From Chloroflexota bacterium (GTDB lineage Bacteria > Chloroflexota > Anaerolineae > SpSt-313), in contig JAKPJZ010000100.1 of assembly GCA_029553955.1 (NCBI GenBank), positions 21,437 to 53,436 of the forward strand: 32,000 nucleotides of DNA, given 5' to 3'. The notes under the pieces are model-generated. The model searched no databases. It had not been told where the DNA came from and was given only the letters and a program-made list of their open reading frames with translations. Positions 4,968 through 29,757 of the stretch are shown here, one piece after another. Position 1 is the stretch's first letter; each line of letters opens with the position of its first letter. The position numbers and the translations under genes were made by a program.

Positions 4968-4997
4968 GAGAAGGATAGAGACGACGTTCCAGAGAAC

Positions 4998-5486
4998 GTG
5001 GCGTTCGTCCCCGTCGATTTCGAGACCGAGTCGCTCAGCGCCAGGCTCGAAGAAGCTGGTTTGCGCCGTCAGCAGAAGAGCCTCTTCATTCTTGAGGGGC
5101 TGCTGATGTACCTGCGGCCCGGTGCGGTCGAAGAGCTGTTCCGGACCATCCAGGGCTATGCCGGCCCGGGCAGCAGCGTGGTGTTCGACTATGTCCGGGC
5201 CTCAGTACTGCGGGGCGAGGCCCACGGCGATGGGGAGCGGGAGATCGTGGCGCGGGTGACCCAGGCCCACGAGCTTTGGCATTTTGGCCTCGAGACGGAT
5301 GACATCGGCGATTTGCTCGCAGCGTACGGTCTGAGGCTGGCCGAGCATCGAGACGCCACGGCGCTGGAGGAGGCGTACTTTAGGAATCCATCAGGCAAGA
5401 TTGTGGGCCATGTAAACGGCACGCACTGCCTGGTGACTGCCGAGATGGTCCAGGCACACACTGCTTGGGAACAGCCAGCTCGCTAG
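4998..5486 (+). pseudogene. 5'-truncated class I SAM-dependent methyltransferase (leucine-carboxyl/O-MT-like family) fragment
   Basis: The translation starts abruptly at VAFVPVDFE...SLFILEGLLMYL, which is the C-terminal half of this family (my recollection). No SAM-binding N-terminal half, SD or ATG is present. Confidence 0.5.
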
Positions 5487-17827: not shown

Positions 17828-20238
17828 CTACGTGATAGTGCCCGCGCGCATCTGCTCGACCTCGGCCCGCGTGTAGCCGCCCAGTTCCCAGCGGGGCGTG
17901 TGCGCCACCAGTTCCTCGATCAGCTTTCTCGCGCGACGCAGTGTCGCGGCGCCCGAGACACCATAGTGGTGCTCGAGGCTGGCGACAAAGCTCGAGGCCG
18001 GCGTGCCCTGCCGGATCTCGCGCTGGATGACGCGTACGCTGATGTCGATGCCGGTGAGCTCGCTCAGCTCGCGCTCGATGCGCGCCTCCCCTCCGAAAGG
18101 GGCTGGTTGCCCTCGGCGATGGCATGCAGCGTCTGCAGGCTCCAGCGGCGCGGTGGAAGCCGGTGCGCACGCTTGCGGGTGGCCAGGGCCTGCACGTTGC
18201 CCACCTCGTGGATGGCCACGAGCCCGCTGGCCAGCACCTTGAAGTGCTGCTCGTCGCGCCGCAGCAGGCCCTCCACGCGCTCGAGGCTGCACCAGTCGCC
18301 AGGATGCAGCTCGGCGCTGACGCGAGCGTGCAGCTCCTCTACCTTGAGCGTTCCCTCGAGTCTGAGCAGGCCAAAGGCCGCCTTGAGGAACTCTTGCGCC
18401 TCAGCGATCTCGTGGGGCTGCAGGGGGCGTGGGCAGGCCGGCTCGGATGGCCCGTACTGCTCCTCATAGACAGCGTCAAAGCCCTGGCGCGCCTCGGCCA
18501 GTCGCGCCTCATCTTTCCAGTCGCCCCGCAGGATCAGGCGCGGCTCGTTGCTGGGCATGCCGCGGATCAGGAGCGTATAGCTCACGTTGCGCGCGGGCAC
18601 GGCGTACTCTTGGCGCAGGCTATCGATCTCGGCCTGCATCTGGGCTTCGATGTGCTCGGCCGAGGCCGGCCGCAACAGCGTGCAGTTGCTCCGGCATTCG
18701 GCCTTCTCGCAATCGCAGCCCACGCTGATGCCCCGTGGCGTCAGCCGCCAGGCGCGCACGGCTGGCCCGCGGCCCCTCTTGGCCAGGACGTAGGCGCGCA
18801 CCTCAGGCTCCCCCCACTCGACCTCGACCTCCAGCTTCCAGCCGGCGGTGTTGGGCCGCGGCGGCGCCTTGGCAGGGCGCGGGGCCGGCTTGGCCGGGCG
18901 CGGCCGCGCGGGCGGCGCTGCCGGCGCCTTGGCTGCCGGCGCGAGGCGGGCCTTCGTGGGCCGCGCCGGCTCCGCCGCCGGCGCTGCGGCCGCGGGTGCG
19001 CCGCCGGCGGCGTGGCAGAGCCCTACATGCTCGTGGCAGGTCGCGCGCCCGCAGATGCCGCAGCGGTTCAGGCTCGTCTGGCAGACGGGCCGGCCGCAGA
19101 CGGCGCAGGCGGCCATTTGCGCGGCGCACAGGCTGCAGTACACCCGCTTGCAGTCGGTGCACTGGTGCTCCAGCAGGCACTCGGCGTGCGCCAGGTGGCC
19201 GCCACTGCAGAGCTGCAGGCTGAGACCAGGCTGGCCGCAGACGTCGCAAGCCAGCGGCTCGATGGCATGGGGCAACGGGTCCCAGACGATGCGCCGCTGC
19301 ACTCTGGTGTTGCGGTTCTCGATCTGCACCAGGAGCTCGATCTTGGGCTGGGTGATGACCTGGACCGTGATCAGCTCCAGGTCGACGCGCAGCCGGTAGC
19401 GAGCCTCGGCGTCGGCGAGCTTGAGCTGGCGCTCGGCCTGCGCCGCCGCGATCTTGTCGTGCAACGTGGCCTGGCGCTCACCCTCGGCACGGCGCAGACG
19501 CCGCTCCAGGTCGCGTACCAAGTCGTCATAATACTGCTCCAGGCGCGCCCGGTCCAGCTCCAGGTGACGGGCGGCGCGCCGGCTCAGCCCCTCGATGGCG
19601 CCCGACATGCGGGCCACGGCCGCGCACTCGGCCCGTTTGAGGAGCCCGGCGAGTGCTGCGGTTTCCAGCGGCTGTGGCGCGTCGAGCCAGCGCGGCCGAG
19701 CAGTCGCCAGGTGCGCGAACGCCAGCGCTTCTTCCAGCGCGGCCTCAGTGCGGATGGCCTCCCACTCCACCGGCCAGCCGGCCTGGGCGTCGATGGCTAC
19801 CGTGGCCAGGTGCTCCTGCTTCTCGTCAGTGGTCAGCGTCACCTTGAAGGCGAAGACCAGGTAGTGCGACAGGACAGACCGCTCGACCTCTTTGGGCAGC
19901 TCCACCAGTCGGGCATTGGCAAACGACAGTGTCTGCCGCGCCGCTGCGGCCAGGCCCCGCTTGTCGAGGCGCACGGCATTGACATGGGCCTGTGCCGGCG
20001 CAGGCGAACGCCGGGCCAGCTCCACGATGCGATCGACCTGCGGGTGGCCCTGCGTCAGGTGCAGACGGCCGTCGTCTACGTCGACGTCGTCGAACACAAT
20101 CTCCTGCAGCGCCGGCACGCCGAGCTGGCCGGCCAGGGCGTCGGGCAGCAGCACCTCATGGGCGCCAAACCTGGGCGGCTCGACCAGGGCGCCGTTCACT
20201 TGCAGGAAATCCAGCACAAAATCCCGTAGGTCGCTCAT
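17828..20238 (-). CDS. large (about 800 aa) coiled-coil / multi-zinc-ribbon / Pro-Ala-linker protein translationally coupled to the SNF2 helicase, with an apparent 1-nt frameshift at 18088-18091
   Basis: ATG 20238 overlaps the helicase stop (ATGA). The Cys cluster reads CDVCGQ...CSGGH...CTDCKRVYCSLC...CAVCGRPVC...CGICGRATCHEH. A PA-rich linker follows. The 724-aa ORF stops at 18064, but coding clearly continues in another frame (EARIERELSELTGIDISVRVIQ...) to 17828. Confidence 0.7.
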
Positions 20239-22023
20239 TGCGCCGAGAAGTCCTCCCCAAAGAGTGCTTCGTCGTAATCGCGGGCGTGCCGATACGCCTC
20301 ACGGGCCTGCACTAGCTCGTCGCCGAGCCGCGCAAAGCTGCGTGCCGCCTCGTCGGGAGTTGCCGCCTGGACCCAGAGGTCCATGACGATATCATCGAAA
20401 TCGCGCTCGTCGGCCAGGTGGCCCAGGATCATATCCATCTCACCGATGACCAGCTCGAACATGTTGAGCTTGCGGTCGAGGATGTCGAGGATAGTCCTCC
20501 ACCGAGCCCTCGGCCGTCAGGTTGAAGACCTCGACCGGGCGCGTCTGGCCCACGCGGTGGATGCGGCCCACCCGCTGCTCGATGCGCTGTGGGTTCCACG
20601 GCAGATCGAAATTGACCATGGTGCGGCAGAACTGCAGGTTGCGGCCCTCGCCGGCGGCCTAGGTCGAAAGGAGGACACGGCCCTCGCGCTCAAAGCGCCG
20701 GATGGCCCCGTCCTTTGCCGCCGCGGTCATTTGGCCATGATAGAGCACGGGGTCGATGCCCATGCCACGCAGCCGGTCAGCCAGCAGCTCGAGCGTGGCC
20801 CGGAAATGGGTAAAGATGATGACCCTATCATCGCCGCCGGCCAGCACCGTCGACATCAGCAGCTTGTCGAGCGCGGCCGCTTTCGACCAGCCGGGCATGC
20901 TCGCCGCGCGCTCGGCCAGCGCCTCGAGTTCTTCGCGATAGGGCGCCATGGCCTCGTGCCGGGCCAGCGCCAGCAGCGTCGGCCGGGCAGCGGCGGGGCA
21001 ACTGCCGATCTCGCGTTGCAGCGCCTGCAGCGTGAAGCGATGCGCCTGCGACATGGTCGCGCCTGCCAGGCGCTCGCGGACGAAGGCGCTCGTGTCGTCG
21101 TAGAGGGCGCGCTCGGCCGGCGAGAGCTTGACGCTGACGGTGTGCGCGTGGCGCGGCGGCAGCTCGACGCTCGCCTGGCTGCGGCTGTGGCGTACCATGA
21201 CGTCGGCCAGCAGCTCGCGCAGCCGGCCGCGGTTCTTGGGCAGGCGCGGGTCGCCCTGCGCCACAAACTGGCGCCTGAACTCGCGCGGCGTCGCCAGTTG
21301 GCCCGGCTTTAGGATCGTGATCAGGTTGTACAGCTCGTCGAGGCTGTTCTCCACCGGCGTCGCGGTCAGCAGCAGGATGTACTTTTTCTGCAGGCTGTTG
21401 ACAAACTTCCACGAGACGCTGGCGCGGTTCTTCAGGTGATGCGCCTCGTCGACAATGACCAGGTCGTACATCTGTGCGGCGATGGCCTCGCGGTGTTCGG
21501 GGCGGCGCGCCGTCGGCAAGCTGGCAATGACGCGCGGGAAGGCGCCCCAGGCCTGCGCGCCCAGCTCGCGGAACTGGGCGTCGTAGCTGGAGACGAAATC
21601 GGGCAGGCCGAACTTGCCGGCCAGCTCTTCGCGCCATTGCTCGATCAGCGACGGCGGCGTGACGATCAGCACGCGCCGCGCCATGCCGCGTAGCAAGTAC
21701 TCCTTGAGCACCAGGCCCGCCTCGATGGTCTTGCCCAGCCCCACCTCGTCGCAGAGCAGGCCACGGCCACGGAAGCGTCGCAGGACCGCCTGGGCCGCGC
21801 TGACCTGATAGTCAAAGGGCGTAAAGCTCAGCGCGTCGAGGCAGGCGAGCACGTCAAAGCCGGCCACCAGCGCCATGCGCTCGGCCTGCAGCCGCACGCT
21901 ATGAGCGGTCGCGCTCGCGAATCGGCCCTGGGCGAGCAGGTCCAGCACACCCTGGGCGCCCGGCAGCAGGCGCACGTTTTCGATTACCAGTGGCTTGATA
22001 GTATCCGACATAATGGGAATCAT
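20235..22023 (-). pseudogene. SNF2-family (RapA/HepA-like) helicase with an in-frame TAG and a frameshift near the 3' end
   Basis: Motifs DEVGLGKTIEAG, VIVDEAHHLKN and LLLTATPVENSL, then ...GRVLLST-TAG(20659-20661)[38 protein letters not shown]. A frame change at about 20489-20494 follows, then [23 protein letters not shown] to the stop at 20235. Start is ATG 22023 or 22011. Confidence 0.85.
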
Positions 22024-22083
22024 ACCACAGAGAAAACTCCAAATCAAGCGCCGCGGCGAGACACCATCGGGCGCGCAGCGCAG

Positions 22084-22113
22084 TTGACATGAAGATGGGT
22101 AAAGTGCTAAAAT
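22084..22113 (+). promoter_or_regulatory. sigma70-like promoter (TTGACA-N18-TAAAAT) for the RyR gene
   Basis: TTGACA at 22084-22089 and TAAAAT at 22108-22113, about 50 nt before ATG 22162. Confidence 0.55.
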
Positions 22114-22161
22114 TCGGTCAAGCCCGTTACACCCGCCTTGCCCGGGTGGAGGAGGAGAGCG

Positions 22162-22446
22162 ATGCCCTACCAGCCACAGCCCATCGACACCTCGCACATA
22201 GAGCTTGGCGACGATATCCGCGCGCTGGCCGAGCGCCTGGCCGAGAACGCCCACGAGCAATGGTCGCGGCAGCGCCTGGCCGACGGCTGGCGCTACGGCC
22301 CGCACCGCGATGACGCCCGCAAGGAGACCCCCAACCTCGTGCCCTACAGCGAGCTGCCCGAGTTCGAGAAGGAATACGACCGCATCCTGGTCGCCGAGAC
22401 GTTGAAGGCCATCATCGCCCTCGGCTTTCGCATCGAAAGGGCCTGA
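22162..22446 (+). CDS. stand-alone RyR (ryanodine-receptor repeat) domain protein, 94 aa
   Basis: ALAERLAENAHEQWSRQRLADGWRYGPHRDDARKETPNLVPYSELPEFEKEYDRILVAETLKAIIALGFRI is a textbook RyR-domain pattern. SD GGAGGAGGAG lies upstream. Confidence 0.85.
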   Translation: MPYQPQPIDTSHIELGDDIRALAERLAENAHEQWSRQRLADGWRYGPHRDDARKETPNLVPYSELPEFEKEYDRILVAETLKAIIALGFRIERA

Positions 22447-22463
22447 TGGCATCAGGACCGGTT

Positions 22464-22503
22464 GGTAGACCTGGCAGGTCTGCGAAGACCTGCCAGGTCT
22501 ACC
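22464..22503. terminator. 18-bp perfect hairpin after the RyR gene (possible terminator, no U-tract)
   Basis: GGTAGACCTGGCAGGTCT gcga AGACCTGCCAGGTCTACC. A smaller hairpin, CCTGATggcATCAGG, spans the stop codon. Confidence 0.45.
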
Positions 22504-22538
22504 TGGGCTGCTTGGCCGACATGAGGGGATAGGGCGCA

Positions 22539-22568
22539 ATGGCCCATGACGTCTTTATCAGCTACGCA
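22539..22568 (+). pseudogene. 10-codon remnant of a TIR-domain-type gene start
   Basis: ATGGCCCATGACGTCTTTATCAGCTACGCA encodes MAHDVFISYA, the canonical TIR N-terminal strand (DVFISY). Similarity ends exactly where the repeat array begins (22569). Confidence 0.35.
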
Positions 22569-23070
22569 TCGGCCGGCAGCCGTCGCCAGCCGGTGGCGCA
22601 GGCGTCCTCGCCTGCGCCACCGGCCCGTGGGACAGGCTTTCTAAATGCTTCCAGGTTGATTGTGCTATACGTCAGCGATCCATGGGGCCGACGGAGTTGG
22701 CCACGAATGGCACGAATTGCCACGAATGGAGAGCCTTCGTGCGAATTCGTGCAATTCGTGGCCTCATTCCTCGTCCAGATACGTCCAGGTCGATTGTAGG
22801 CTACGGGAGCACGCTTCCTGAACGTATCCGCGTAACGCAGGATCTAACTGGAAGCATTTAGCCCGTCGGTTGTCGGCCGGTGCGAGGGCCGGCGGGCTGG
22901 AGAGCCCGCCCCACCGGCCCGTGGGACGGGCTTTCGAGCCGTCAAGGATCGGCCGGCGCGAGGGCTGGCGGGCTGGTAAGCCCGCCCCCCACAGGCCCGT
23001 GGGACGGGCTTTCGAGCCCGTCAAGGGTCGGCCGGCGCGAGGGCCGGCGGGCTGGAAAGCCCGCCCCACG
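22569..23070. repeat. tandem array of about 76-79-bp hairpin-bearing units (3.5 units; unit 0 is interrupted by an inserted element)
   Basis: Units start with TCGGCCGG at 22569, 22873, 22949 and 23028. Each carries GGCGGGCTggnnAGCCCGCC and GCCCGTgggACGGGC hairpins. Unit 0 has a different compensated stem, GGCGCAGGCgtcctcGCCTGCGCC. Confidence 0.8.
22641..22861. mobile_element. 221-bp MITE-like insertion with 14-bp perfect terminal inverted repeats
   Basis: CTAAATGCTTCCAG (22641-22654) and CTGGAAGCATTTAG (22848-22861). The element splits repeat unit 0 (GGCTTT|...|CCCGTC versus the intact GGCTTTCGAGCCCGTC). It contains an internal CACGAAT-based palindrome and no transposase. Confidence 0.5.
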
Positions 23071-23184
23071 GGCGCGTACCTGCATCTTGACGACTGGGTG
23101 CCAGCGCACGAGGCCGCAAGCAGGGCGCCGTGGCGCCACAGGCCTGATTCGGGGCGGCGTGGCCCCGGGAAAGGTGGTTGAGCG

Positions 23185-26100
23185 ATGGCCAGACGTGCGG
23201 CGTGGTACACCCGTCCCGTCTTTGTCTCCAGCACCTTCTGCGACATGCACGCCGAGCGCGACCACCTGCGCGACGTGGTCTTTCCCGAGCTGGCCGAGCG
23301 GCTGCGGGCGCGCCGCCACCACCTGGAGGCCATCGACCTGCGCTGGGGCGTGCAGACGGTGAGCGCCACAGAGGAGCAGGCGCGCGAGCTGCTGGTGCTC
23401 AAGGTCTGCCTCGACGAGATCGACCGCTGCCGGCCGTTCTTCATCGTGCTCCTGGGCGACCGCTACGGCTGGGTGCCGCCGCCGGATGCGCTGGCGGCCG
23501 CCGCGGGCGAGAAGGGCCTCAGCGCCATGATGGCGGGGCAGAGCGTGACCGCGCTCGAGATCGCCTACGGCCCCCTGCACGACCCCGCCCAGGCGCGGCG
23601 CTGCCTGGCCTACCTGCGCCAGCCCCTGCCCTACGACGAGATGCCGCCCGAACTGGCGGCGCTCTACTCGGAGGCGCACAGCCCCGCGCCCGGCGCCCGT
23701 GAGGCCGGCGAGCGGCTGCGGGCGCTGAAGGAGCGGCTGCAGGTTGCGCTGGGGCCGGGCCGGGTGCGCCATTACGCAGCCACGTGGGACGCCGCGCGCC
23801 GCCGCGTGACCGGTCTCGACGAGTGGGGCCGCCTGGTGCTGGAGGACCTCTGGCGCCAGCTCGACGCCGAGACCGCGGCGCTGGCGGCCGCCCCTGCGCC
23901 CACCTGGCAGGAGGAGGAGCGCGCCACCCTCGACGAGTTCATCGAAGAGCGCGCCCGCGGCTTTGTGGGCCGCAGTGAGGCGCTGCAGAGCCTGCGTGAG
24001 GTGGCGCTGGGCAGCGGCGACGGCCCCTGGGCGGCCGTGGTCACCGGCGCCGCGGGCACGGGCAAGAGCGCCCTGCTGGCCCGGCTGGCGCGCGACCTGG
24101 AGGCGGCGGAATGCCTGGTGCTGGCGCACGCGGCGGGCATCAGCGCCCGCGCCGGCAGCGTGGAGGCCATGCTGCGGCGCTGGAACGGCGAGCTGTCGGC
24201 GCACCTGGGGCTGAGCGCGGGGGGCGACGAGGCCACCGGGCTGCCGCAGGTCGAGCAGCAGTTCGCCGAGCGGCTCTCGCAGGCGGCGGCGCGCGGCCGC
24301 GTGGTGCTGCTCGTCGACGCCCTCAACCAGTTCGAGCGCACCCCCGCGGCGCGTCACCTCACCTGGCTGCCCGAGCTGTGGCCCGCTAACGCCCGGCTCA
24401 TCGCCACCGCCATCGCGGGCGAGGAGAGCGCCGCGCTCTGCCGCCGGCCGGGCGTCGTGACGCTGGCGCTGCCGCCGCTCGACGAGCGCGAGGCGGCGGG
24501 CATGGTGGCGGCCATCGCCGCGCGGCACCACAAGGCGGTGCACCCCGCGGTCGCGGCGGCGCTCGTGGAGCGGCGCACGCCCGGCGGCGAGAGCGCCGCC
24601 GGCAACCCGCTGTGGCTGAGCATCGCCGTCGAGACCCTGCTCCTGCTCGACGAAGAGGATTTCGCCCGCGCGCCGCGCTACGCTGGGACGCCCGAGGCGC
24701 AGTTGCAGGCGCTGCTCCGTGAAACGGCCGCGGGGCTGCCGGCGACCGTGGAGGCGCTCTACGGCGAGCTGCTGCAGCGGGCGGGGCGGCGCTTTGGCGC
24801 GGCCTGGGTGGCGGCGCTGCTCGACCTGCTCGCCGCCGCCCGCCATGGCCTGCGCGAGGCCGACCTGCGGCAGCTCGTGCCCGCGCTCGTCGGGGAGGGG
24901 TGGAGCGACCTGCGCTTCGCCGGCCTGCGCCGCTACCTGCGCGCCCACCTGGCGCGCCGCGGCGCCGAGGAGCTGTGGGATTTCCGCCACGCCCAACTGC
25001 GCGCCTGCGCCGTTGCTGGGGTCAGCGCCCAGGTGGGCCGGGCGCAGGCGCTGCAGCGGCGGCTGCTCGAGCACCTGGAGCGGCGGCCCAGGGGCGACCC
25101 GCTGCGCGCCGCGGAGCTGATGTACCACTACATCCAGGCCGATGAGCAGCTCGGCGCGGCCGGCTACTATGGCGGCGCGTTGACCGACGAGGAGGCGGCC
25201 GGCGCCACGCGGGCGCTGGCCGAGCTGATCATCGCCGGCGGGGCAAAGCAGCCGAACCCCGGGCTGGCATGGGTGGCGTCGCTTTTGCAGCAGGAGGAGA
25301 CCAGACTCCTGCTGCGTGGTCTCTGTGGGCGCTACCAGTTTGATTTGCTTCACGCGCTGACGGGCAACGCCAGCGTGGCGATATCGCTGGCGTTGCTGCA
25401 AGAGGTTCGCGGCGCGCTGGAGCGGCTGCACCAGCGGGCGCCAGAAGATGTCGACCATGCGCGTGACCTGGCGGTGAGCTACCATAAGCTGGGCGAGGTG
25501 TACTTGGCGTTGGGCGAGCCGGTGCGGGCGCGCGAGCCCTACGAGCGATGCCTGGCGATTGCCAAGATGCTGCGGCAGCGAGTACCAGACAGGGCCGAGT
25601 ATGCGCGCGACTTGGCGGTGAGCTACGAGCGGCTGGGGAACCTGTGTGTGCTGCTGGACGAACTGGCGCAGGCACGCAAGCTCTTTGGGGAATGCCTGGC
25701 GATTGCCGACGAACTGCGTCGTTGTGCACCCGACAACGTCGAGTATGCGCGCATCTGGTCGGTGAGCCGCATCAAGCTAGGAGAGCTGTACGTGGCGCTC
25801 GGGGAGACGGCGCAGGCGCGCGAGTTCTATGAGCGGGCTATTAAGATCGATGAGGAGCTGCACCGGCGTGCGCCCGCTCACGGCGGTCATGCGCGCGAAC
25901 TGGCGGTGAGCTATGAGAGATTGGGCGACCTGCACCTGGCGCTGGGGGAGACGGTGCAGGCGCTGGAATTCTATCAGAAGGATCTGGCGATCGCCGAGGA
26001 ATTGCATCGTCGTGCCCCCGACAACGTCGAGTATGCGCGAGTCCTGATGGTGAGCTACCACAAGCTGGGAGAGCTGTACGTGAAGCAGGGCGACTTTGCG

Positions 26101-26499
26101 GGCGCGAGACAGGTATACAAAGAGGGCCTGGCCATCGCTGAGATGCTGCGGCGGCAGACGCCCGACCGCGCCGAGTATGCGAACGACCTGATGGTGAGCT
26201 ACGAGCGATTGGGCAATTTGCACCTGGCGCTGGGCGAGCCGGCGCAGGCGCGTGAGTTCTACGAGCAGGCCAGGGAGATTGCCGAGGAAATGCGCAGCCG
26301 GGCGCCCAGCAACGCCCAGTACGCGCGCGCCTTCGTCGTGCTGTGCTACAGTCTGGCGCGGACGGCGCAGCAGCAGGGCGATGGCGCCGAGGCGGCACGC
26401 GAGCTGGGGCGCTGCCGCCAGGTGCTGCTGGAGATGCGGGCGCACGGCATGTACCTGGACCCGCCCCTGGCGCAGCTCCTGGAGCAGCTTGGCGGCTGA
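23185..26499 (+). CDS. STAND-class NTPase: DUF4062-type N-terminal domain, NACHT-like P-loop, helical arm, and about seven 48-aa TPR-like repeats (1104 aa)
   Basis: The N-terminus VFVSSTFCDMHAERDHLRDVVFPEL...FFIVLLGDRYGW is the DUF4062 signature. Walker A VVTGAAGTGKSALL and Walker B VVLLVDALNQ. The C-terminus has repeats DLAVSYERLGNL..ALGE..QAREFYE..L.IAEEL.RRAPD..EYAR. Confidence 0.85.
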   Translation: MARRAAWYTRPVFVSSTFCDMHAERDHLRDVVFPELAERLRARRHHLEAIDLRWGVQTVSATEEQARELLVLKVCLDEIDRCRPFFIVLLGDRYGWVPPPDALAAAAGEKGLSAMMAGQSVTALEIAYGPLHDPAQARRCLAYLRQPLPYDEMPPELAALYSEAHSPAPGAREAGERLRALKERLQVALGPGRVRHYAATWDAARRRVTGLDEWGRLVLEDLWRQLDAETAALAAAPAPTWQEEERATLDEFIEERARGFVGRSEALQSLREVALGSGDGPWAAVVTGAAGTGKSALLARLARDLEAAECLVLAHAAGISARAGSVEAMLRRWNGELSAHLGLSAGGDEATGLPQVEQQFAERLSQAAARGRVVLLVDALNQFERTPAARHLTWLPELWPANARLIATAIAGEESAALCRRPGVVTLALPPLDEREAAGMVAAIAARHHKAVHPAVAAALVERRTPGGESAAGNPLWLSIAVETLLLLDEEDFARAPRYAGTPEAQLQALLRETAAGLPATVEALYGELLQRAGRRFGAAWVAALLDLLAAARHGLREADLRQLVPALVGEGWSDLRFAGLRRYLRAHLARRGAEELWDFRHAQLRACAVAGVSAQVGRAQALQRRLLEHLERRPRGDPLRAAELMYHYIQADEQLGAAGYYGGALTDEEAAGATRALAELIIAGGAKQPNPGLAWVASLLQQEETRLLLRGLCGRYQFDLLHALTGNASVAISLALLQEVRGALERLHQRAPEDVDHARDLAVSYHKLGEVYLALGEPVRAREPYERCLAIAKMLRQRVPDRAEYARDLAVSYERLGNLCVLLDELAQARKLFGECLAIADELRRCAPDNVEYARIWSVSRIKLGELYVALGETAQAREFYERAIKIDEELHRRAPAHGGHARELAVSYERLGDLHLALGETVQALEFYQKDLAIAEELHRRAPDNVEYARVLMVSYHKLGELYVKQGDFAGARQVYKEGLAIAEMLRRQTPDRAEYANDLMVSYERLGNLHLALGEPAQAREFYEQAREIAEEMRSRAPSNAQYARAFVVLCYSLARTAQQQGDGAEAARELGRCRQVLLEMRAHGMYLDPPLAQLLEQLGG

Positions 26500-26539
26500 A
26501 TCCTTCCACACCGGGTGTGCGATATGGTGTGGCTGCCGT

Positions 26540-26712
26540 CTGCTCGTGGCAGAGGTGGGGAACCCCCTACCGTTCCCCCGGCGGGGGGAATTCAGGTTCA
26601 CGAGGCAGGCTTGCCGCCTTGCAGGGGGATGCAGCGACGCGGAGCGCCGGGAGCCGGCCCAATTCCCCCCGCCGGGGGAACGGTAGGGGGTTCCCGCCCC
26701 TGCCATGAGCAG
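26540..26712. repeat. about 52-nt-arm inverted repeat separated by 68 nt
   Basis: CTGCTCGTGGCAGAGGTGGGGAACCCCCTACCGTTCCCCCGGCGGGGGGAATT (26540-26592) pairs with AATTCCCCCCGCCGGGGGAACGGTAGGGGGTTCCCGCCCCTGCCATGAGCAG (26661-26712). There are a few mismatches near the outer ends. Confidence 0.85.
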
Positions 26713-26828
26713 ACCTGGCGGCATTGTTTCGCACAATCAAGTTGGAGGCATTTGGCAGCAATGCCTTTCAAATAGGGCGACAGTCGTTACTACGATGTGC
26801 TCGTTATTTGAACGGCATTGAGCCTGGT

Positions 26829-26907
26829 GGTTCGCCGCATTGGTTTTGATGGGCTGCGACGCCCACAAGGGGCTAGGCTACGCCCATCACAACCAATGCG
26901 GCGAACC
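26829..26907. repeat. 26-nt-arm inverted repeat (1 mismatch)
   Basis: GGTTCGCCGCATTGGTTTTGATGGGC (26829-26854) pairs with GCCCATCACAACCAATGCGGCGAACC (26882-26907). Confidence 0.85.
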
Positions 26908-27040
26908 GCGAGCCCCCTGGCCGCCACAGGCGGCTTGTGGGCGTTGCAGGGCGACGATTCGGCCGTCTGGGGGCCTTCACAGGCATGCCTGACCGATGTT
27001 CCCGCGGGCAGCGCGCCCTGCGCTGCGCAAGGAGGCAAGG

Positions 27041-28961
27041 ATGGCGACTGTCGCTACCAAGGGGGTGTGGGCCAACCTGTGCGCCTGGTGGAGGCGCTTC
27101 AATCGGCGGCGCCGCGCCCTCGACCGCCAGTTACACCTGGTGTGGCAGGACGTGGAGTGGCCGGTGGTCGTGGCCTTGGCGCTGGCAGCGTTCGTGCTCG
27201 GCTACATCGGCTTTGCGCGCAACGCGGTCGCCCAGGGCCAGGCGCTCACACCCTGGGACCTCTTCTACCTCTCGCTGCAGCTCTTTGTGCTGCAGTCGGG
27301 CGCGGTGCCGGGGCCAGTCGGTTGGGAGTTGAACCTGGCGCGGCTGCTCGCGCCTGCAGTGGCCGGCTACACCGCCTACCAGGCCATCGTGGCCATCTTT
27401 GACCAGCAGAAGGACCTGGTTCGCCTCTGGTACTGGCGCAACCATGCCATCATCTGCGGGCTGGGGCGCAAGGGGCTGCTCCTGGCGCAGGGGCTGCGCG
27501 CCGACGACGTCAACGTCGTGGTCATCGAGCCCGACTGCGACAACCCACGGCTCGCCCAATGCCGCGATGCCGGCGCCATCGTCCTCACCGGCAGCGACGA
27601 CGAGATGCTGCGCAAGGCGCACGTCGAGCGGGCGCGTTACCTCTTTGCCGTCTCGGGCGATGACAACCGCAACGCCGAGATTGCCGTCCTGGCACAGCGG
27701 CAGTTGGCCGGGCGCCCTCTCAAGCCGCTGCCGACGGGCCGAGTGGCGCGCCTTTGCCGCACGCCTGTGGACCTTTGTCACGCGTCGCCCCAGTGGGCCG
27801 CTCGCCTGCCATGTGCATGTGTTTGACCCGCAACTGCACGCCCTGCTGCGGCCTGTACAGGGGGCGCTGCAGGTGGCGCGCACCTTCCGCCTAGAGTTCT
27901 TCAATACCTTCGACAGCGGCGCCCGCGCCCTGGTCGATGACCCGGCACATTCGCCCTTTGCCGGCCCTGAGTCGGCGCAGGCGGCATGCCTGGTCGTGGT
28001 GGGGTTGGGGCAAATGGGCGAGAGCCTGGTGCTGCGTGCCGCGGCCAGCTATCGTGGGCCGTGCCCGCCTGCCGCACCGCCCCTGCGCATCACCGTCGTC
28101 GACCGCAGGGCCACCCAACGCGTGAAGGCGCTGCTCGTGCGCTACCCCTGGCTGGCGCCCATCTGCAAGATCGAACCGCTGCCGCCGATGGACGTGTCGG
28201 AGGCCGAGTTCCTCAGCTACCAGTTCCTGTTCGACGCCGCCGGGCAGTGCCTGGCCACGCACATCTACGTCTGCATCGACGACGATGCCCGCAGCCTGGC
28301 GGCCGCACTGGGCCTGCTGCGGCGCCTGCGCGACGATCCGGTGCAGATCATCGCCCGCATGGTTGAGGAGCGAGGCCTGGCCCATCTGCTGCGGCAGCCG
28401 GAGGTCAACCAGGGCGGACTGGCCCGGCTGTACCCCTTCAGCCTGCTCGAGCGCTCCTGCCGCTGGACCATGGTCGTCGACGGCACCTGCGAGGTGCTCG
28501 CCCGTGCCCTCCATGATGCCTATGTGCGCCACCAACGGCAACTGGGCCACACGCCCGAGACGAACAAGTCGATGGTGCCCTGGGAACAATCGCCCGATGA
28601 CCTCAAGGAGTCGAACCGGCAGCAGGCCGATCACATCGCCGTCAAGCTGGCGGCCGTCGGCTGCGGCATGGAGCTGCTGACCGATTGGACCGCTGCTGTC
28701 GCCTTCACCTTTACGTCCGCCGAGGTGGAAAAGCTGGCCGAAATGGAGCACGACCGCTGGGTGGCCGAGCGTCTGGAGAAGGGCTACCGCCTGGGGCCAA
28801 GGGATCCGGTGCGCAAGACCATCCCCTACCTGGTGGCCTGGGGCCAGCTCACCAATGAGGTGCAGGAGTACGACCGCGAGGCGGTGCGCCGGCTGCCATG
28901 GGCGTTGGCAGGCGCCGGGCTGCAGATCTACCGCCTGAAGCCGAGGCCACGGAGCCCCTGA
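27041..28961 (+). CDS. membrane protein: 2TM channel-like N-terminus, TrkA-N/Rossmann domain, second Rossmann-like domain, two RyR repeats. The frame changes somewhere in 27700-27826, so this is either a frameshift or two genes.
   Basis: ATG 27041 follows AAGGAGG. TM helices WPVVVALALAAFVLGYIGF and LARLLAPAVAGYTAYQAIVAIF. IICGLGRKG is a GxGxxG motif, and VVVGLGQMGESL is a second one. RyR-like LARALHDAYVR...VPWEQSPDDLKESNRQQADHI and LAEMEHDRWVAERLEKGYRLGP...IPYLVAWGQLTNEVQEYDREAV. Frame 2 stops at 27826; frame 0 carries the rest. Confidence 0.75.
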
Positions 28962-29068
28962 GGGTCAGAGCCCTGGCTGGAGATTGCATTGCCACGTCGC
29001 TCAGAAGCGTGTCATTGCGAGTGCCCCAGGGTTCCCGGCACCCTGCGCCAAGCCGATGACGTCGTACT

Positions 29069-29123
29069 GTAGCCGCGGCATCGTGCCGCGTAGAAGGGTT
29101 TCGCGGCAACATGCCGCGGCTAC
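29069..29123. repeat. 22-nt-arm hairpin (2 mismatches)
   Basis: GTAGCCGCGGCATCGTGCCGCG (29069-29090) pairs with CGCGGCAACATGCCGCGGCTAC (29102-29123). Confidence 0.85.
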
Positions 29124-29256
29124 GGCCCGGCGGACTATGTCATGAGCAGTGCCCCAGGGTCTCCGAACCCTGTGCCAGACAGAGGAACTTGGGCTTGCGG
29201 CCCAGGCCGACAGCCGGGCGTTTCGCTGCGCGCTCATCCGGCCCTAAGCCTTGGGC

Positions 29257-29334
29257 AAGGGGTTTGGGAGGCTGGCACCGTTGCCCGGCCCCCCACGGGG
29301 GGCCGGGCAACGGTGCCAGCCTCCCAAACCCCTT
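29257..29334. repeat. 38-nt-arm perfect palindrome whose termini match the 16703-16792 palindrome
   Basis: AAGGGGTTTGGGAGGCTGGCACCGTTGCCCGGCCCCCC ac GGGGGGCCGGGCAACGGTGCCAGCCTCCCAAACCCCTT. Both this and the 16703 element begin AGGGGTTT(T)GG and end CCAAA(A)CCCCT. Confidence 0.95.
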
Positions 29335-29434
29335 CTTGAGGGGCCCGCACCGGGTTTGTGCCTCGTGCAGGGCACGGGGCGTGCAAGCCGGTCACCGGCC
29401 TCAGGTGCCACAGGCAGGCCAAGTTTCTGAGCAG

Positions 29435-29531
29435 GAGGAGGCCGCAGCCGACGAAGCAATCCCTTGGTTGCGAGCGCAGCGAGGCACTCCACGTCGGACA
29501 TGGAGATTGCTTCGTCGGCTGCGGCCTCCTC
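29435..29531. repeat. 27-nt-arm perfect inverted repeat of the GATTGCTTCG...CTCGCAATGAC dispersed-repeat type
   Basis: GAGGAGGCCGCAGCCGACGAAGCAATC (29435-29461) pairs with GATTGCTTCGTCGGCTGCGGCCTCCTC (29505-29531). CTCGCAATGACAG is repeated at 29528 and 29586. A related copy lies at about 11372-11420. Confidence 0.9.
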
Positions 29532-29625
29532 GCAATGACAGTCGCAGTTTCTGTGCCTGCACAGGCTGCACCGCGGCCTGGGATACTCGCAATGACAGCA
29601 TGAACAGATTCGGGTGCTCTACATC

Positions 29626-29657
29626 GCAAGGACCGTGCCTCATGGCACGGTCCTTGC
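29626..29657. repeat. 14-bp perfect hairpin upstream of the secreted-protein gene
   Basis: GCAAGGACCGTGCC tcat GGCACGGTCCTTGC. Confidence 0.85.
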
Positions 29658-29757
29658 TGTTTGTCCTCTCGGCGGTGGCGCATGCGCCCTGGAACACCCG
29701 GCGCCGCCCGACCGGTTGCCCGGCTGCCCTGGAAAGCACTGCAAGGAGATGCAGGCG

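Follow-up and report, generated by a model that had tools for sequence, protein, structure and literature searches.

In type X Thoeris, the TIR protein ThsB is paired with an effector described as an 'ion channel' (10.64898/2025.12.03.692087). In phages, proteins with ryanodine receptor (RyR) domains, termed RyDEP, bind 2'/3' cyclic ADP-ribose (2'/3'cADPR) at nanomolar affinity or cleave it to ADP-ribose (ADPR); RyDEP uses H75, W78, H100 and D117, its pocket keeps the linear ADPR after cleavage, the same positions contact adenine ligands in Repeat12 (R12) of human RyR3, and conservation of these residues does not predict catalysis (PMC13232231). DUF4062, in turn, is a TIR-like NADase domain: bacterial Swarozyc (KpSwz) and human TEP1 hydrolyse NAD+ to ADPR and nicotinamide, with E97 and E1008 as the respective catalytic glutamates, and the activity rises with oligomerisation (10.64898/2026.05.01.722283). 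The locus considered here lies in a 32,000-nt stretch of a Chloroflexota genome assembly (GCA_029553955.1, contig JAKPJZ010000100.1, positions 21,437 to 53,436; hereafter the window), in which genes for a stand-alone RyR-domain protein (RyR-only), a DUF4062-NACHT-TPR STAND protein and a channel-like protein with TrkA_N and RyR domains follow one another on the plus strand, all three being real genes. The chances seem about even that what survives at this locus is a decaying copy of a conflict or immune system that is modular, has spread horizontally and runs on NAD+-derived signalling, with a Thoeris-like logic and an NLR-like sensor.

Relatives of the channel gene number 492 in 185,579 GTDB species genomes. 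From these, 80 loci were taken, 78 of them non-redundant, and all open reading frames (ORFs) of the 80, called mechanically, were scanned with hidden Markov models built from few seeds. Partner genes cluster around the channel gene, mostly on its strand, with 91 of 128 lying within 2.5 kb of it as against 44.5 expected under uniformity (P=6.5e-17). Where at least 5 kb is available on both flanks (35 loci), a TIR or DUF4062 gene is present in 26, a DUF4062-STAND gene in 12 and a partner of any kind in 30; many of the contigs from metagenome-assembled genomes (MAGs) have short flanks, so the neighbourhood counts are lower bounds. STAND and channel genes separated by only -21 to 263 nt on the same strand are seen in seven loci (eight pairs), and STAND–channel loci without a TIR gene detected in the sequence covered include L007, L009, L013 and L019. 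Two divergent DUF4062 subgroups are each found paired with the channel. In the reverse direction, 15 of 77 non-redundant STAND-centred metagenome loci contain RyR genes, 18 in all, of which 14 are no more than 2.5 kb away (P=0.0016). By MAG titles the channel loci come from Chloroflexota, Gammaproteobacteria, Acidobacteriota, Aminicenantes, Actinomycetota, Deltaproteobacteria/Syntrophaceae and the archaeon Ca. Methanoperedens. Thus, these genes co-occur far beyond chance. The initial annotation of the window had suggested checking such a co-occurrence for the three genes as a set: the STAND and TrkA-N/RyR genes are indeed conserved and often operonic neighbours, in many bacterial phyla and one archaeal MAG, but a fixed trio did not emerge. 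Small RyR-only genes are found at only 4 of the 78 channel loci, and the trio is accordingly just one arrangement that a modular set can take, not a fixed unit. What is conserved is the channel plus a sensor of the TIR or DUF4062 kind, to which NUDIX, RelA_SpoT-SLOG-RyR and P-loop-RyR partners may be added.

These further partners were already visible in the first three contexts, where the channel gene is accompanied by adjacent DUF4062-NACHT STANDs with WD40 or TPR arms, TIR-WD40 or TIR-TPR proteins, a NUDIX gene, a RelA_SpoT-TPR-LSDAT(SLOG)-RyR protein and a P-loop-RyR protein of about 890 aa. One recurrent pair consists of a NUDIX gene (PADLOC candidate PDC-S07) and an adjoining gene for a protein of about 830 aa with RelA_SpoT, TPR, LSDAT/SLOG and two RyR modules, the RelA_SpoT part of which matches PADLOC candidate PDC-S33; both partners suit a set of signalling genes centred on ADPR. 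At 24 of the 78 loci the channel is accompanied by the P-loop-RyR protein, more often than by any other RyR-bearing neighbour; in this wider set the protein is about 880–960 aa long, has weak nSTAND_NTPase5/AAA matches and carries two RyR repeats at its C-terminus, and no PADLOC or NCBIfam family covers it.

The STAND protein has an N-terminal effector domain, a P-loop NTPase and a C-terminal repeat sensor, i.e., the tripartite architecture of Avs proteins, and its gene is intact in all contigs of the population. The assignment of the DUF4062, STAND and RyR domains in the initial annotation is upheld by Pfam profile searches, its '48-aa repeat' arm turns out to be a TPR array of six copies at 144-nt spacing, and the conflict-type, NLR-like character that it proposed is upheld as well. 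The N-terminus aligns with the TIR-like domain of human TEP1 (PDB 11gz_A, E=9e-25), such that a putative catalytic glutamate falls opposite TEP1 E1008 (Table 1) and the arginine of a GDRYGW motif opposite R976, the arginine of the RYG motif; the numbering of 11gz_A was deduced from the 894-1113 construct length and checked in that R908 and R976 fall on the arginines of the STFRD and RYG motifs. Pfam identifies no RyR domain in the protein. Among defence models, it draws weak TPR matches only and no Avs model in PADLOC v2.0.0, and only sub-threshold TPR matches in NCBIfam. With these domains it would act as an invader sensor and NADase in one.

The third gene, as had been claimed, combines a channel-like N-terminus of two transmembrane helices (2TM) with two Rossmann/RCK modules and two RyR repeats. 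It belongs to a uniform family of hundreds of members, about 600 aa long and built of TrkA_N and RyR, whose homologs JGI and NCBI annotate as Kch or NAD-binding proteins. An AlphaFold model of the intact homolog P0009 (106 aligned sequences; predicted local distance difference test, pLDDT, 91.3; predicted template modelling score, pTM, 0.86) has TM1, a short helix, a loop, TM2, two Rossmann modules and a C-terminal helical domain, in other words an RCK gating module behind a 2TM pore domain. A Foldseek search of the PDB with this model returns the multi-ligand-gated channel GsuK first (NAD- and ADP-bound entries included; E=3e-11, about 510–530 aligned columns), followed by TrkA gating rings, the CASTOR ring and full-length MthK, while its C-terminus matches human RyR3 Repeat12 with ADP, ATP or AMP-PCP. 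Both GxGxxG Rossmann motifs and their acidic residues are near-invariant in the family, and the filter segment is conserved as LQLF(V/T)L(E/Q)SG.V.GP (LQLFVLQSG in the window), a sequence distinct from the TVGYG of potassium filters.

At the positions of RyDEP H75/W78/H100/D117, mapped with the RyDEP sequences from the supplement of PMC13232231, repeat 1 of the window protein has H, Y, N and N, and the family of 106 has H in 106, Y in 106, N in 85 and N in 94. Repeat 2 has H, W, I and D in the window; across the same family the first position is H in 100, the second W, F or Y in 105, the third S in 56, H in 20 and N in 19, and the fourth D in 80. The RyR pocket is under selection.

The 94-aa RyR-only protein is a bare RyR domain over the full Pfam profile, and its gene has the near-consensus promoter-like site and the hairpin that had been noted. 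Promoter-like sites of this kind number three in the region as against 0.4 expected, and the hairpin was not called an intrinsic terminator in the terminator/promoter scan. The family is tight, with more than 220 homologs at 60–88% identity and a mean column identity of 57%; H31 and D73 are invariant and W34 nearly so. Among PDB sequences, human RyR2 repeats are about 50% identical to the window protein, and the crystallised 'putative ryanodine receptor' of B. thetaiotaomicron also matches. The four RyDEP positions map to H31, W34, T56 and D73, three of the four being kept; the family consensus has all four (H, W, the H of a KEHP motif, and D). KETPN or KTTPN stands in place of KEHP in the window protein (T56 codon, 22327-22329) and its closest relatives P0122, P0123, P0197 and P0239, and this is a lineage-specific loss of the phosphate-contacting histidine. 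The protein may be a binder, a buffer or a glycosidase for an ADPR-type ligand. The statement that bacterial RyR domains have no assigned function has become outdated, now that 2'/3'cADPR is known as a ligand or substrate of RyR-domain proteins of phages (PMC13232231).

TIR, DUF4062 or channel genes turn up repeatedly next to stand-alone RyR genes. Of six homologs looked up independently, four stood beside TIR or TrkA_N-RyR genes, one beside other conflict-type genes (L099) and one at a contig end (L097). The orders read RyR, TIR/DUF4328, SLATT, RyR, TIR/WD40 in L100 and NUDIX, TPR-S protein, TIR-STAND, RyR in L184, while the neighbour is a TrkA_N-RyR gene in L181 and a TIR gene in L185; in L124 and L147/L149 small RyR ORFs immediately precede DUF4062 genes. 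In L181-L183 (JGI 3300056824 and related), a 100-aa RyR gene is convergent to a 674-aa TrkA_N-RyR gene and adjoins a T4 gp30.3-like gene (PF08010), with no STAND or TIR gene within 7 kb; this 100-aa protein is on at least 24 contigs, many with the same arrangement. Relatives of the cellular stand-alone RyR protein are encoded on 18 IMG/VR contigs (L186-L203; 16 of the 18 at 46–67% identity), and two unannotated 'Bacteriophage sp.' GenBank records hold relatives at 52–54% identity. The family is therefore common to cells and viruses.

The copy in the window is an eroding one, with a frameshifted channel gene, a TIR gene cut to 11 codons and genes spread apart by repeats. The frame break of the third gene that had been noticed is real. 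Homology of frame A to intact relatives stops at 27730, so that the switch of frame lies between 27730 and 27777. The 94-aa protein is carried by 18 contigs, for which eight places from eight samples are listed (JGI, ENA, NCBI), and the split third gene and the split SNF2 gene are called alike in every listed contig that reaches far enough. Together with L001 and L002, these make ten related contigs, each 100% identical to 22000-29200 of the window over the part covered. Both the 94-aa protein and the whole 7.2-kb region point, by identity, to an uncultured Anaerolineae bacterium (MAG GCA_035377745.1, contig DAOSST010000025). The break is covered by six of the ten contigs, each from a different sample and all identical there, and an assembly or sequencing error was accordingly rejected as its cause. 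Programmed frameshifting was considered as well: no slippery site was seen by eye, with no formal scan made, and at the break lie about 46 nt without homology, within a variable linker, a segment with no other copy in the window. The frameshift is thus fixed in a clonal population of this bacterium. Both halves of the gene are otherwise open and have coding-type G+C at third codon positions, and the lesion therefore looks recent.

A TIR-type gene start had been described as decapitated; it is rather the head of the gene that survives and the body that is lost. Ten of the 11 residues of this stub, which is located between the RyR-only and STAND genes, agree with the N-terminus of a 1003-aa TIR protein (Pfam TIR_2) that is intact and neighbours the channel homolog in L008; this protein begins MAHDVFISYSARD. 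Repeats appear to stand where the body of the TIR gene was. The description of the spacers as repeat-filled is likewise confirmed: they are palindromic and MITE-like (miniature inverted-repeat transposable elements), with one 20-mer in five copies as against 0.01 expected. Nested palindromes and direct repeats occur in both, and a 28-nt motif is common to both in inverted orientation (22643-22670 / 26726-26753). At most the STAND protein, via NAD+ depletion, and the small RyR protein are likely to function here still.

Setting out from the observed domain identities, neighbourhood conservation, fold, conserved pocket and catalytic residues, and erosion, homology and context suggest a signal, a receptor, a gated channel, a buffer and an immune function as follows. 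The TPR arm of the DUF4062-NACHT-TPR sensor would recognise a molecule of the invader, upon which NACHT oligomerisation might bring the N-terminal, TIR-like DUF4062 domains together and NAD+ would be hydrolysed, raising ADPR and lowering NAD+. The RyR domains, which are R12-like, would be the receptors of the ADPR-type product, with the Rossmann sites of the RCK modules possibly sensing too; in sister loci that bear a TIR, the ligand may be a cADPR isomer. Ligand binding would open a GsuK-like channel, with its 2TM pore, non-potassium-type filter, two RyR and two RCK modules, causing loss of ion gradients or membrane potential and, with it, growth arrest or abortive infection. The 94-aa RyR-only protein, expressed from its own strong promoter, might be a cellular counterpart of RyDEP that binds or cleaves the signal and sets a threshold or switches the response off, and the NUDIX partners of sister loci may remove ADPR.

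Several observations weigh against this scheme. In the window, the genes stand 0.5–0.74 kb apart, the RyR-only gene has a promoter-like site of its own, and the presumed effector, the channel-like gene, is broken. The filter-like segment has L(E/Q)SG and not TVGYG, so ion conduction is only putative, and the TM-scores of the P0009 monomer model to GsuK are 0.35–0.4, i.e., a similarity at the level of domains only. The phosphate-coordinating H100 of RyDEP is replaced in all three RyR domains of the window (the RyR-only protein has T56 there, the channel repeats N and I), and in the channel family at large the position is occupied mostly by N or S; as this histidine is not retained, details of the ligand may be different. 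On the enzymatic side, the equivalent of TEP1 R908 is Cys19 in the STAND protein, at a position that is variable among bacterial homologs, and the product of TEP1 is only linear ADPR(P), with no other ADPR derivatives, KpSwz converting NAD+ to ADPR (10.64898/2026.05.01.722283). The characterised DUF4062 enzymes are described as NAD+-depleting effectors, so the STAND protein may need no downstream receptor. Furthermore, TIR is the commonest partner of the channel, at 33 of the 78 loci versus 17 with a DUF4062-STAND, and only about 20% of the STAND-centred loci carry any RyR gene, 62 of 77 lacking one. These last three points would also suit two independent systems within one defence island, the STAND protein being an Avs-like, self-contained NAD+-depleter and the RyR genes a separate Thoeris-like module whose TIR has been destroyed. 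The same arrangement would account for the TIR stub between the RyR-only and STAND genes and for the island character lent by the neighbouring defence-type SNF2 fragment, but it sits poorly with the tight same-strand STAND–channel pairs of L007, L009, L013 and L019, in which no TIR was detected, with the pairing of both divergent DUF4062 subgroups with the channel, and with the small RyR ORFs directly upstream of DUF4062 genes. On the whole it is regarded as unlikely.

The initial annotation had envisaged the RyR domain as a protein–protein adaptor, the RyR-only protein docking on the RyR tail of the membrane protein and coupling it to the STAND sensor. That RyR domains recur on several proteins of a neighbourhood lends this a superficial likeness to the coupling by effector-associated domains (EADs) (PMC7159879), and pairing of RyR with RyR is physically possible in that the RyDEP homodimer mimics a tandem R12 (PMC13232231). 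However, RyR repeats group by protein type and repeat index: in 0 of 224 cases is the nearest neighbour from the same locus, and, within a median of 156.5 matches, the best partner from the same locus comes at a median rank of 74.5. Likewise, the RyR-only protein is 41% identical to channel repeat 2, versus 60–88% to RyR-only proteins of distant lineages; the STAND protein has no RyR domain to dock on; the two repeats of the channel already make a pseudo-dimer; the most conserved RyR positions are those of the ligand pocket; and small RyR genes are at hand in only the 4 channel loci counted above. As DUF4062 is a TIR-like NADase (10.64898/2026.05.01.722283), a link through a small molecule is therefore more likely than one through protein contact, and the adaptor role must be considered very improbable. 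Another view would see no immunity at all, the TrkA_N-RyR protein being a housekeeping cation channel or regulator of potassium transport tuned by NAD, ADP or ADPR, the RyR-only protein a metabolic nucleotide binder, and their adjacency to the rest incidental. The annotation of homologs as Kch or NAD-binding, the PDB titles of GsuK entries as NAD- or ADP-bound, the FeoAB and CbiMQO transporters in the flanks of the window and the high conservation of the RyR-only family all accord with it, and the RCK domains of GsuK are said, by Kong et al. in 2012, to respond to NAD+ and ADP in ordinary physiology. Yet the linkage to TIR, DUF4062-STAND, NUDIX and RelA_SpoT-SLOG genes is strong, distance-dependent and mostly same-strand across phyla, the distribution (492 relatives in all) is patchy, partner genes match PADLOC defence-candidate families, and the loss by frameshift has become fixed in the population, as is typical of dispensable conflict genes. 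A housekeeping role is accordingly held to be quite improbable.

The window has a G+C of about 69% and no phage genes; FeoAB and CbiMQO transporters lie on the upstream side and a nonribosomal peptide synthetase (NRPS) condensation-domain gene downstream. The adjacent pair of SNF2 helicases that had been reported is, as to SNF2, present, but proves to be one helicase gene broken in pieces on the minus strand, with the same layout in the other assemblies that cover 18064-22023; by its best matches the fragment would be of a defence type resembling DrmD, DpdE and BrxH. Within the 724-aa ORF beside it, ARAGORN calls a 94-nt tRNA-Gln(ttg) at 18898-18991 (+), probably a false positive by its length and position. 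Downstream of the third gene, a near-perfect long palindrome occupies 29246-29346; as an RNA gene it drew only sub-threshold matches to miRNA precursors in an Rfam scan of 21800-29700, which were judged spurious, and it is almost certainly a repeat element. Farther away, an ORF at 4968-5486 (+) matches only the last 56 positions (131-186 of 187) of the LCM methyltransferase profile, which suggests another truncated or frame-disrupted gene in the window.

Table 1. Positions of the features in the window and, in the last two rows, of partner genes in other channel loci
Feature	Position	Strand	Remark
SNF2 helicase fragment, 454 aa	20659..22023	-	divergent from RyR-only gene; DrmD/DpdE/BrxH/HmaA best matches, below curated cut-offs (NCBIfam, PADLOC)
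Helicase_C fragment	20440-20619	-	piece of SNF2 helicase
75-aa ORF	20235-20462	-	piece of SNF2 helicase
724-aa ORF	18064-20238	-	no family match
Promoter-like site, TTGACA-18-TAAAAT, TG-extended	22084..22113	+	11/12 consensus matches
RyR-only protein, 94 aa	22162..22446	+	Pfam RyR E=1.2e-33 over 91/91 profile positions
Perfect hairpin, 18-nt arms, 4-nt loop, no T-run	22464..22503		just 3' of RyR-only stop codon
TIR-domain gene 5' end, MAHDVFISYAS, 11 codons	22539..22571	+	body lost; runs directly into repeats
Repeat-filled spacer 1	22589..23077		short palindrome, MITE-like element, three direct repeats of 76-79 nt, in tandem at 76-79-nt spacing
MITE-like unit, 221 nt, 31-nt terminal inverted repeats	22641-22861		in spacer 1
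STAND NTPase, 1104 aa	23185..26499	+	Pfam: DUF4062 (E=9e-13), AAA_16/NACHT, TPR families
DUF4062/TIR-like domain	about 23200-23856		residues 12-99 (Pfam), 6-224 (TEP1 alignment)
Putative catalytic E125	23557-23559		aligns with TEP1 E1008
Walker A GAAGTGKS	24046-24069		AAA_16/NACHT residues 260-413; Walker B-type DALNQ motif also present
TPR array, 144-nt period	25414-26356		six registered 223-nt copies; residues about 763-1075
Repeat-filled spacer 2	26558..26923		perfect 35-nt inverted repeat and imperfect 42-nt one
Perfect 35-nt inverted repeat	26558-26592 / 26661-26695		in spacer 2
Channel-like gene, 5' part, frame A, 261 codons	27041..27826	+	true start ATG 27041 behind AAGGAGG; holds TrkA_N
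TM1	27158-27214	+	
Pore-helix and filter-like segment WDLFYLSLQLFVLQSG	27254-27301	+	
TM2	27335-27400	+	
First RCK/TrkA_N Rossmann GxGxxG	27455-27475	+	
Frame-break zone	27731..27776	+	about 46 extra nt versus intact homolog P0003, by boundaries of tblastn high-scoring pairs; variable linker after first Rossmann lobe
Channel-like gene, 3' part, frame B	27777..28961	+	second Rossmann/RCK and two RyR repeats
Second Rossmann/RCK GxGxxG	27999-28019	+	
RyR repeat 1	about 28488-28667	+	
RyR repeat 2	about 28716-28937	+	
NUDIX and RelA_SpoT-SLOG-RyR pair	L003 11852-14778; L008 13452-16372		also L015, L020, L023, L025, L036, L058, L163
P-loop-RyR protein	L007 16801-19494		also L012, L024, L029, L031, L032, L044-L047, L054, L055, L060, L067, L077

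Were the locus indeed a remnant of an NAD+-signalling conflict system, the RyR/R12 domain would be a new receptor domain and the ligand-gated 2TM/RCK channel a new class of effector in immunity through NAD-derived signals. The DUF4062-STAND NADases would then be tied to a second-messenger output, beyond the depletion of NAD+ alone, and host-side counterparts of the anti-defence RyDEP proteins of phages would have been identified. The copy in the window would show such a system in the course of being dismantled in a natural population. A still wider generalization, somewhat doubtful, would make RyR repeats ancient receptors of NAD+-derived nucleotides (ADPR or cADPR isomers) that in prokaryotes gate the 2TM/RCK channel and other effectors (P-loop-RyR, RelA_SpoT-SLOG-RyR) downstream of TIR/DUF4062 NADases, a new and widespread branch of NAD-signalling immunity. 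The modules by which animal RyR and TRPM2 channels sense nucleotides would then have originated from these prokaryotic repeats and from the LSDAT-SLOG and NUDIX modules in the same loci, with host stand-alone RyR proteins as signal buffers and as cellular ancestors or counterparts of phage RyDEP. These genes might also offer a small and tractable bacterial system for the long-debated question of whether an RyR repeat binds ADPR or cADPR directly and is coupled to the gating of a channel.

The initial annotation knew of no described system with this composition, and none was found in the literature, PADLOC or NCBIfam: a necessarily incomplete literature search for RyR/PF02026 with DUF4062, STAND, TrkA or defence returned only the phage RyDEP preprint, and neither the RyR-only protein nor the channel has a model in PADLOC v2.0.0 or NCBIfam r20, window proteins and intact homologs having been scanned. 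PADLOC thus catalogues no family for the trio, its matches being confined to the sub-cut-off ones of the SNF2 fragment and to the partner genes in PDC-S07 and PDC-S33. Taken as a whole, the interpretation first given to the locus is partly supported.

Among the validated systems, type X Thoeris is, to go by its description, probably the closest analogue. As in Thoeris generally, an NAD+-consuming enzyme of the TIR superfamily would stand next to an effector with a ligand-sensing domain, membrane or channel effectors included; TIR genes are present in many sister loci of the channel, and a stub of one survives in the window. Unlike in Thoeris, the intact enzyme here is a DUF4062 domain fused to NACHT-TPR and not a stand-alone TIR protein such as ThsB, and the sensing domain is RyR in place of the known SLOG, Macro or others. 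The paper on type X and its tables mention neither RyR nor TrkA (10.64898/2025.12.03.692087). With RyDEP, the RyR-only protein shares the build of a small single RyR domain and the counterparts of H75, W78 and D117. It differs in being encoded in a chromosome, between transporter genes and a STAND gene, and not by a virus as a means of evasion; in standing nearer to animal RyR repeats (about 50% identity) than to the tested phage proteins (at most 54%); in the threonine that replaces H100 in its subclade; in having no RyDEP-type N-terminal extension; and in its presumed role, which would be host-side regulation and not immune evasion. The EAD adaptors (Kaur et al. 2020, PMC7159879), of which copies in adjacent genes are most closely related to each other and one is joined to the core NTPase, part from the RyR domains in that no RyR repeat has its nearest relative in its own locus and the STAND protein carries none, and the account of them mentions neither ryanodine/RyR nor TrkA.

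The STAND protein shares the DUF4062-NACHT-repeat architecture with human TEP1, NWD1 and NPHP3, keeping the catalytic glutamate and the RYG arginine of TEP1; it differs from the DUF4062 NADases by the cysteine at the R908-equivalent, and KpSwz and Evangelion, in turn, consist of one gene each, with neither a STAND module nor RyR partners. The papers on the DUF4062 of Swarozyc, Evangelion and TEP1 mention no RyR or downstream receptor. The channel-like protein parallels GsuK and MthK in the succession of TM1, pore helix, loop and TM2 and in the tandem Rossmann/RCK modules with GxGxxG nucleotide-binding motifs, and departs from them in the L(E/Q)SG filter, the extra C-terminal tandem of R12-like RyR repeats, the immune-type context and an identity of only 15–19%. 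Eukaryotic RyR and TRPM2 are set apart in that the proteins of prokaryotes are small and built on a 2TM pore gated by RCK modules, and we infer both the ligand and the direction of evolution; nevertheless, the RyR repeats here are about 50% identical to those of RyR2, and sister loci join RyR, LSDAT-type SLOG and NUDIX with NADases, a combination that parallels the LSDAT/SLOG and NUDT9H modules of TRPM2.

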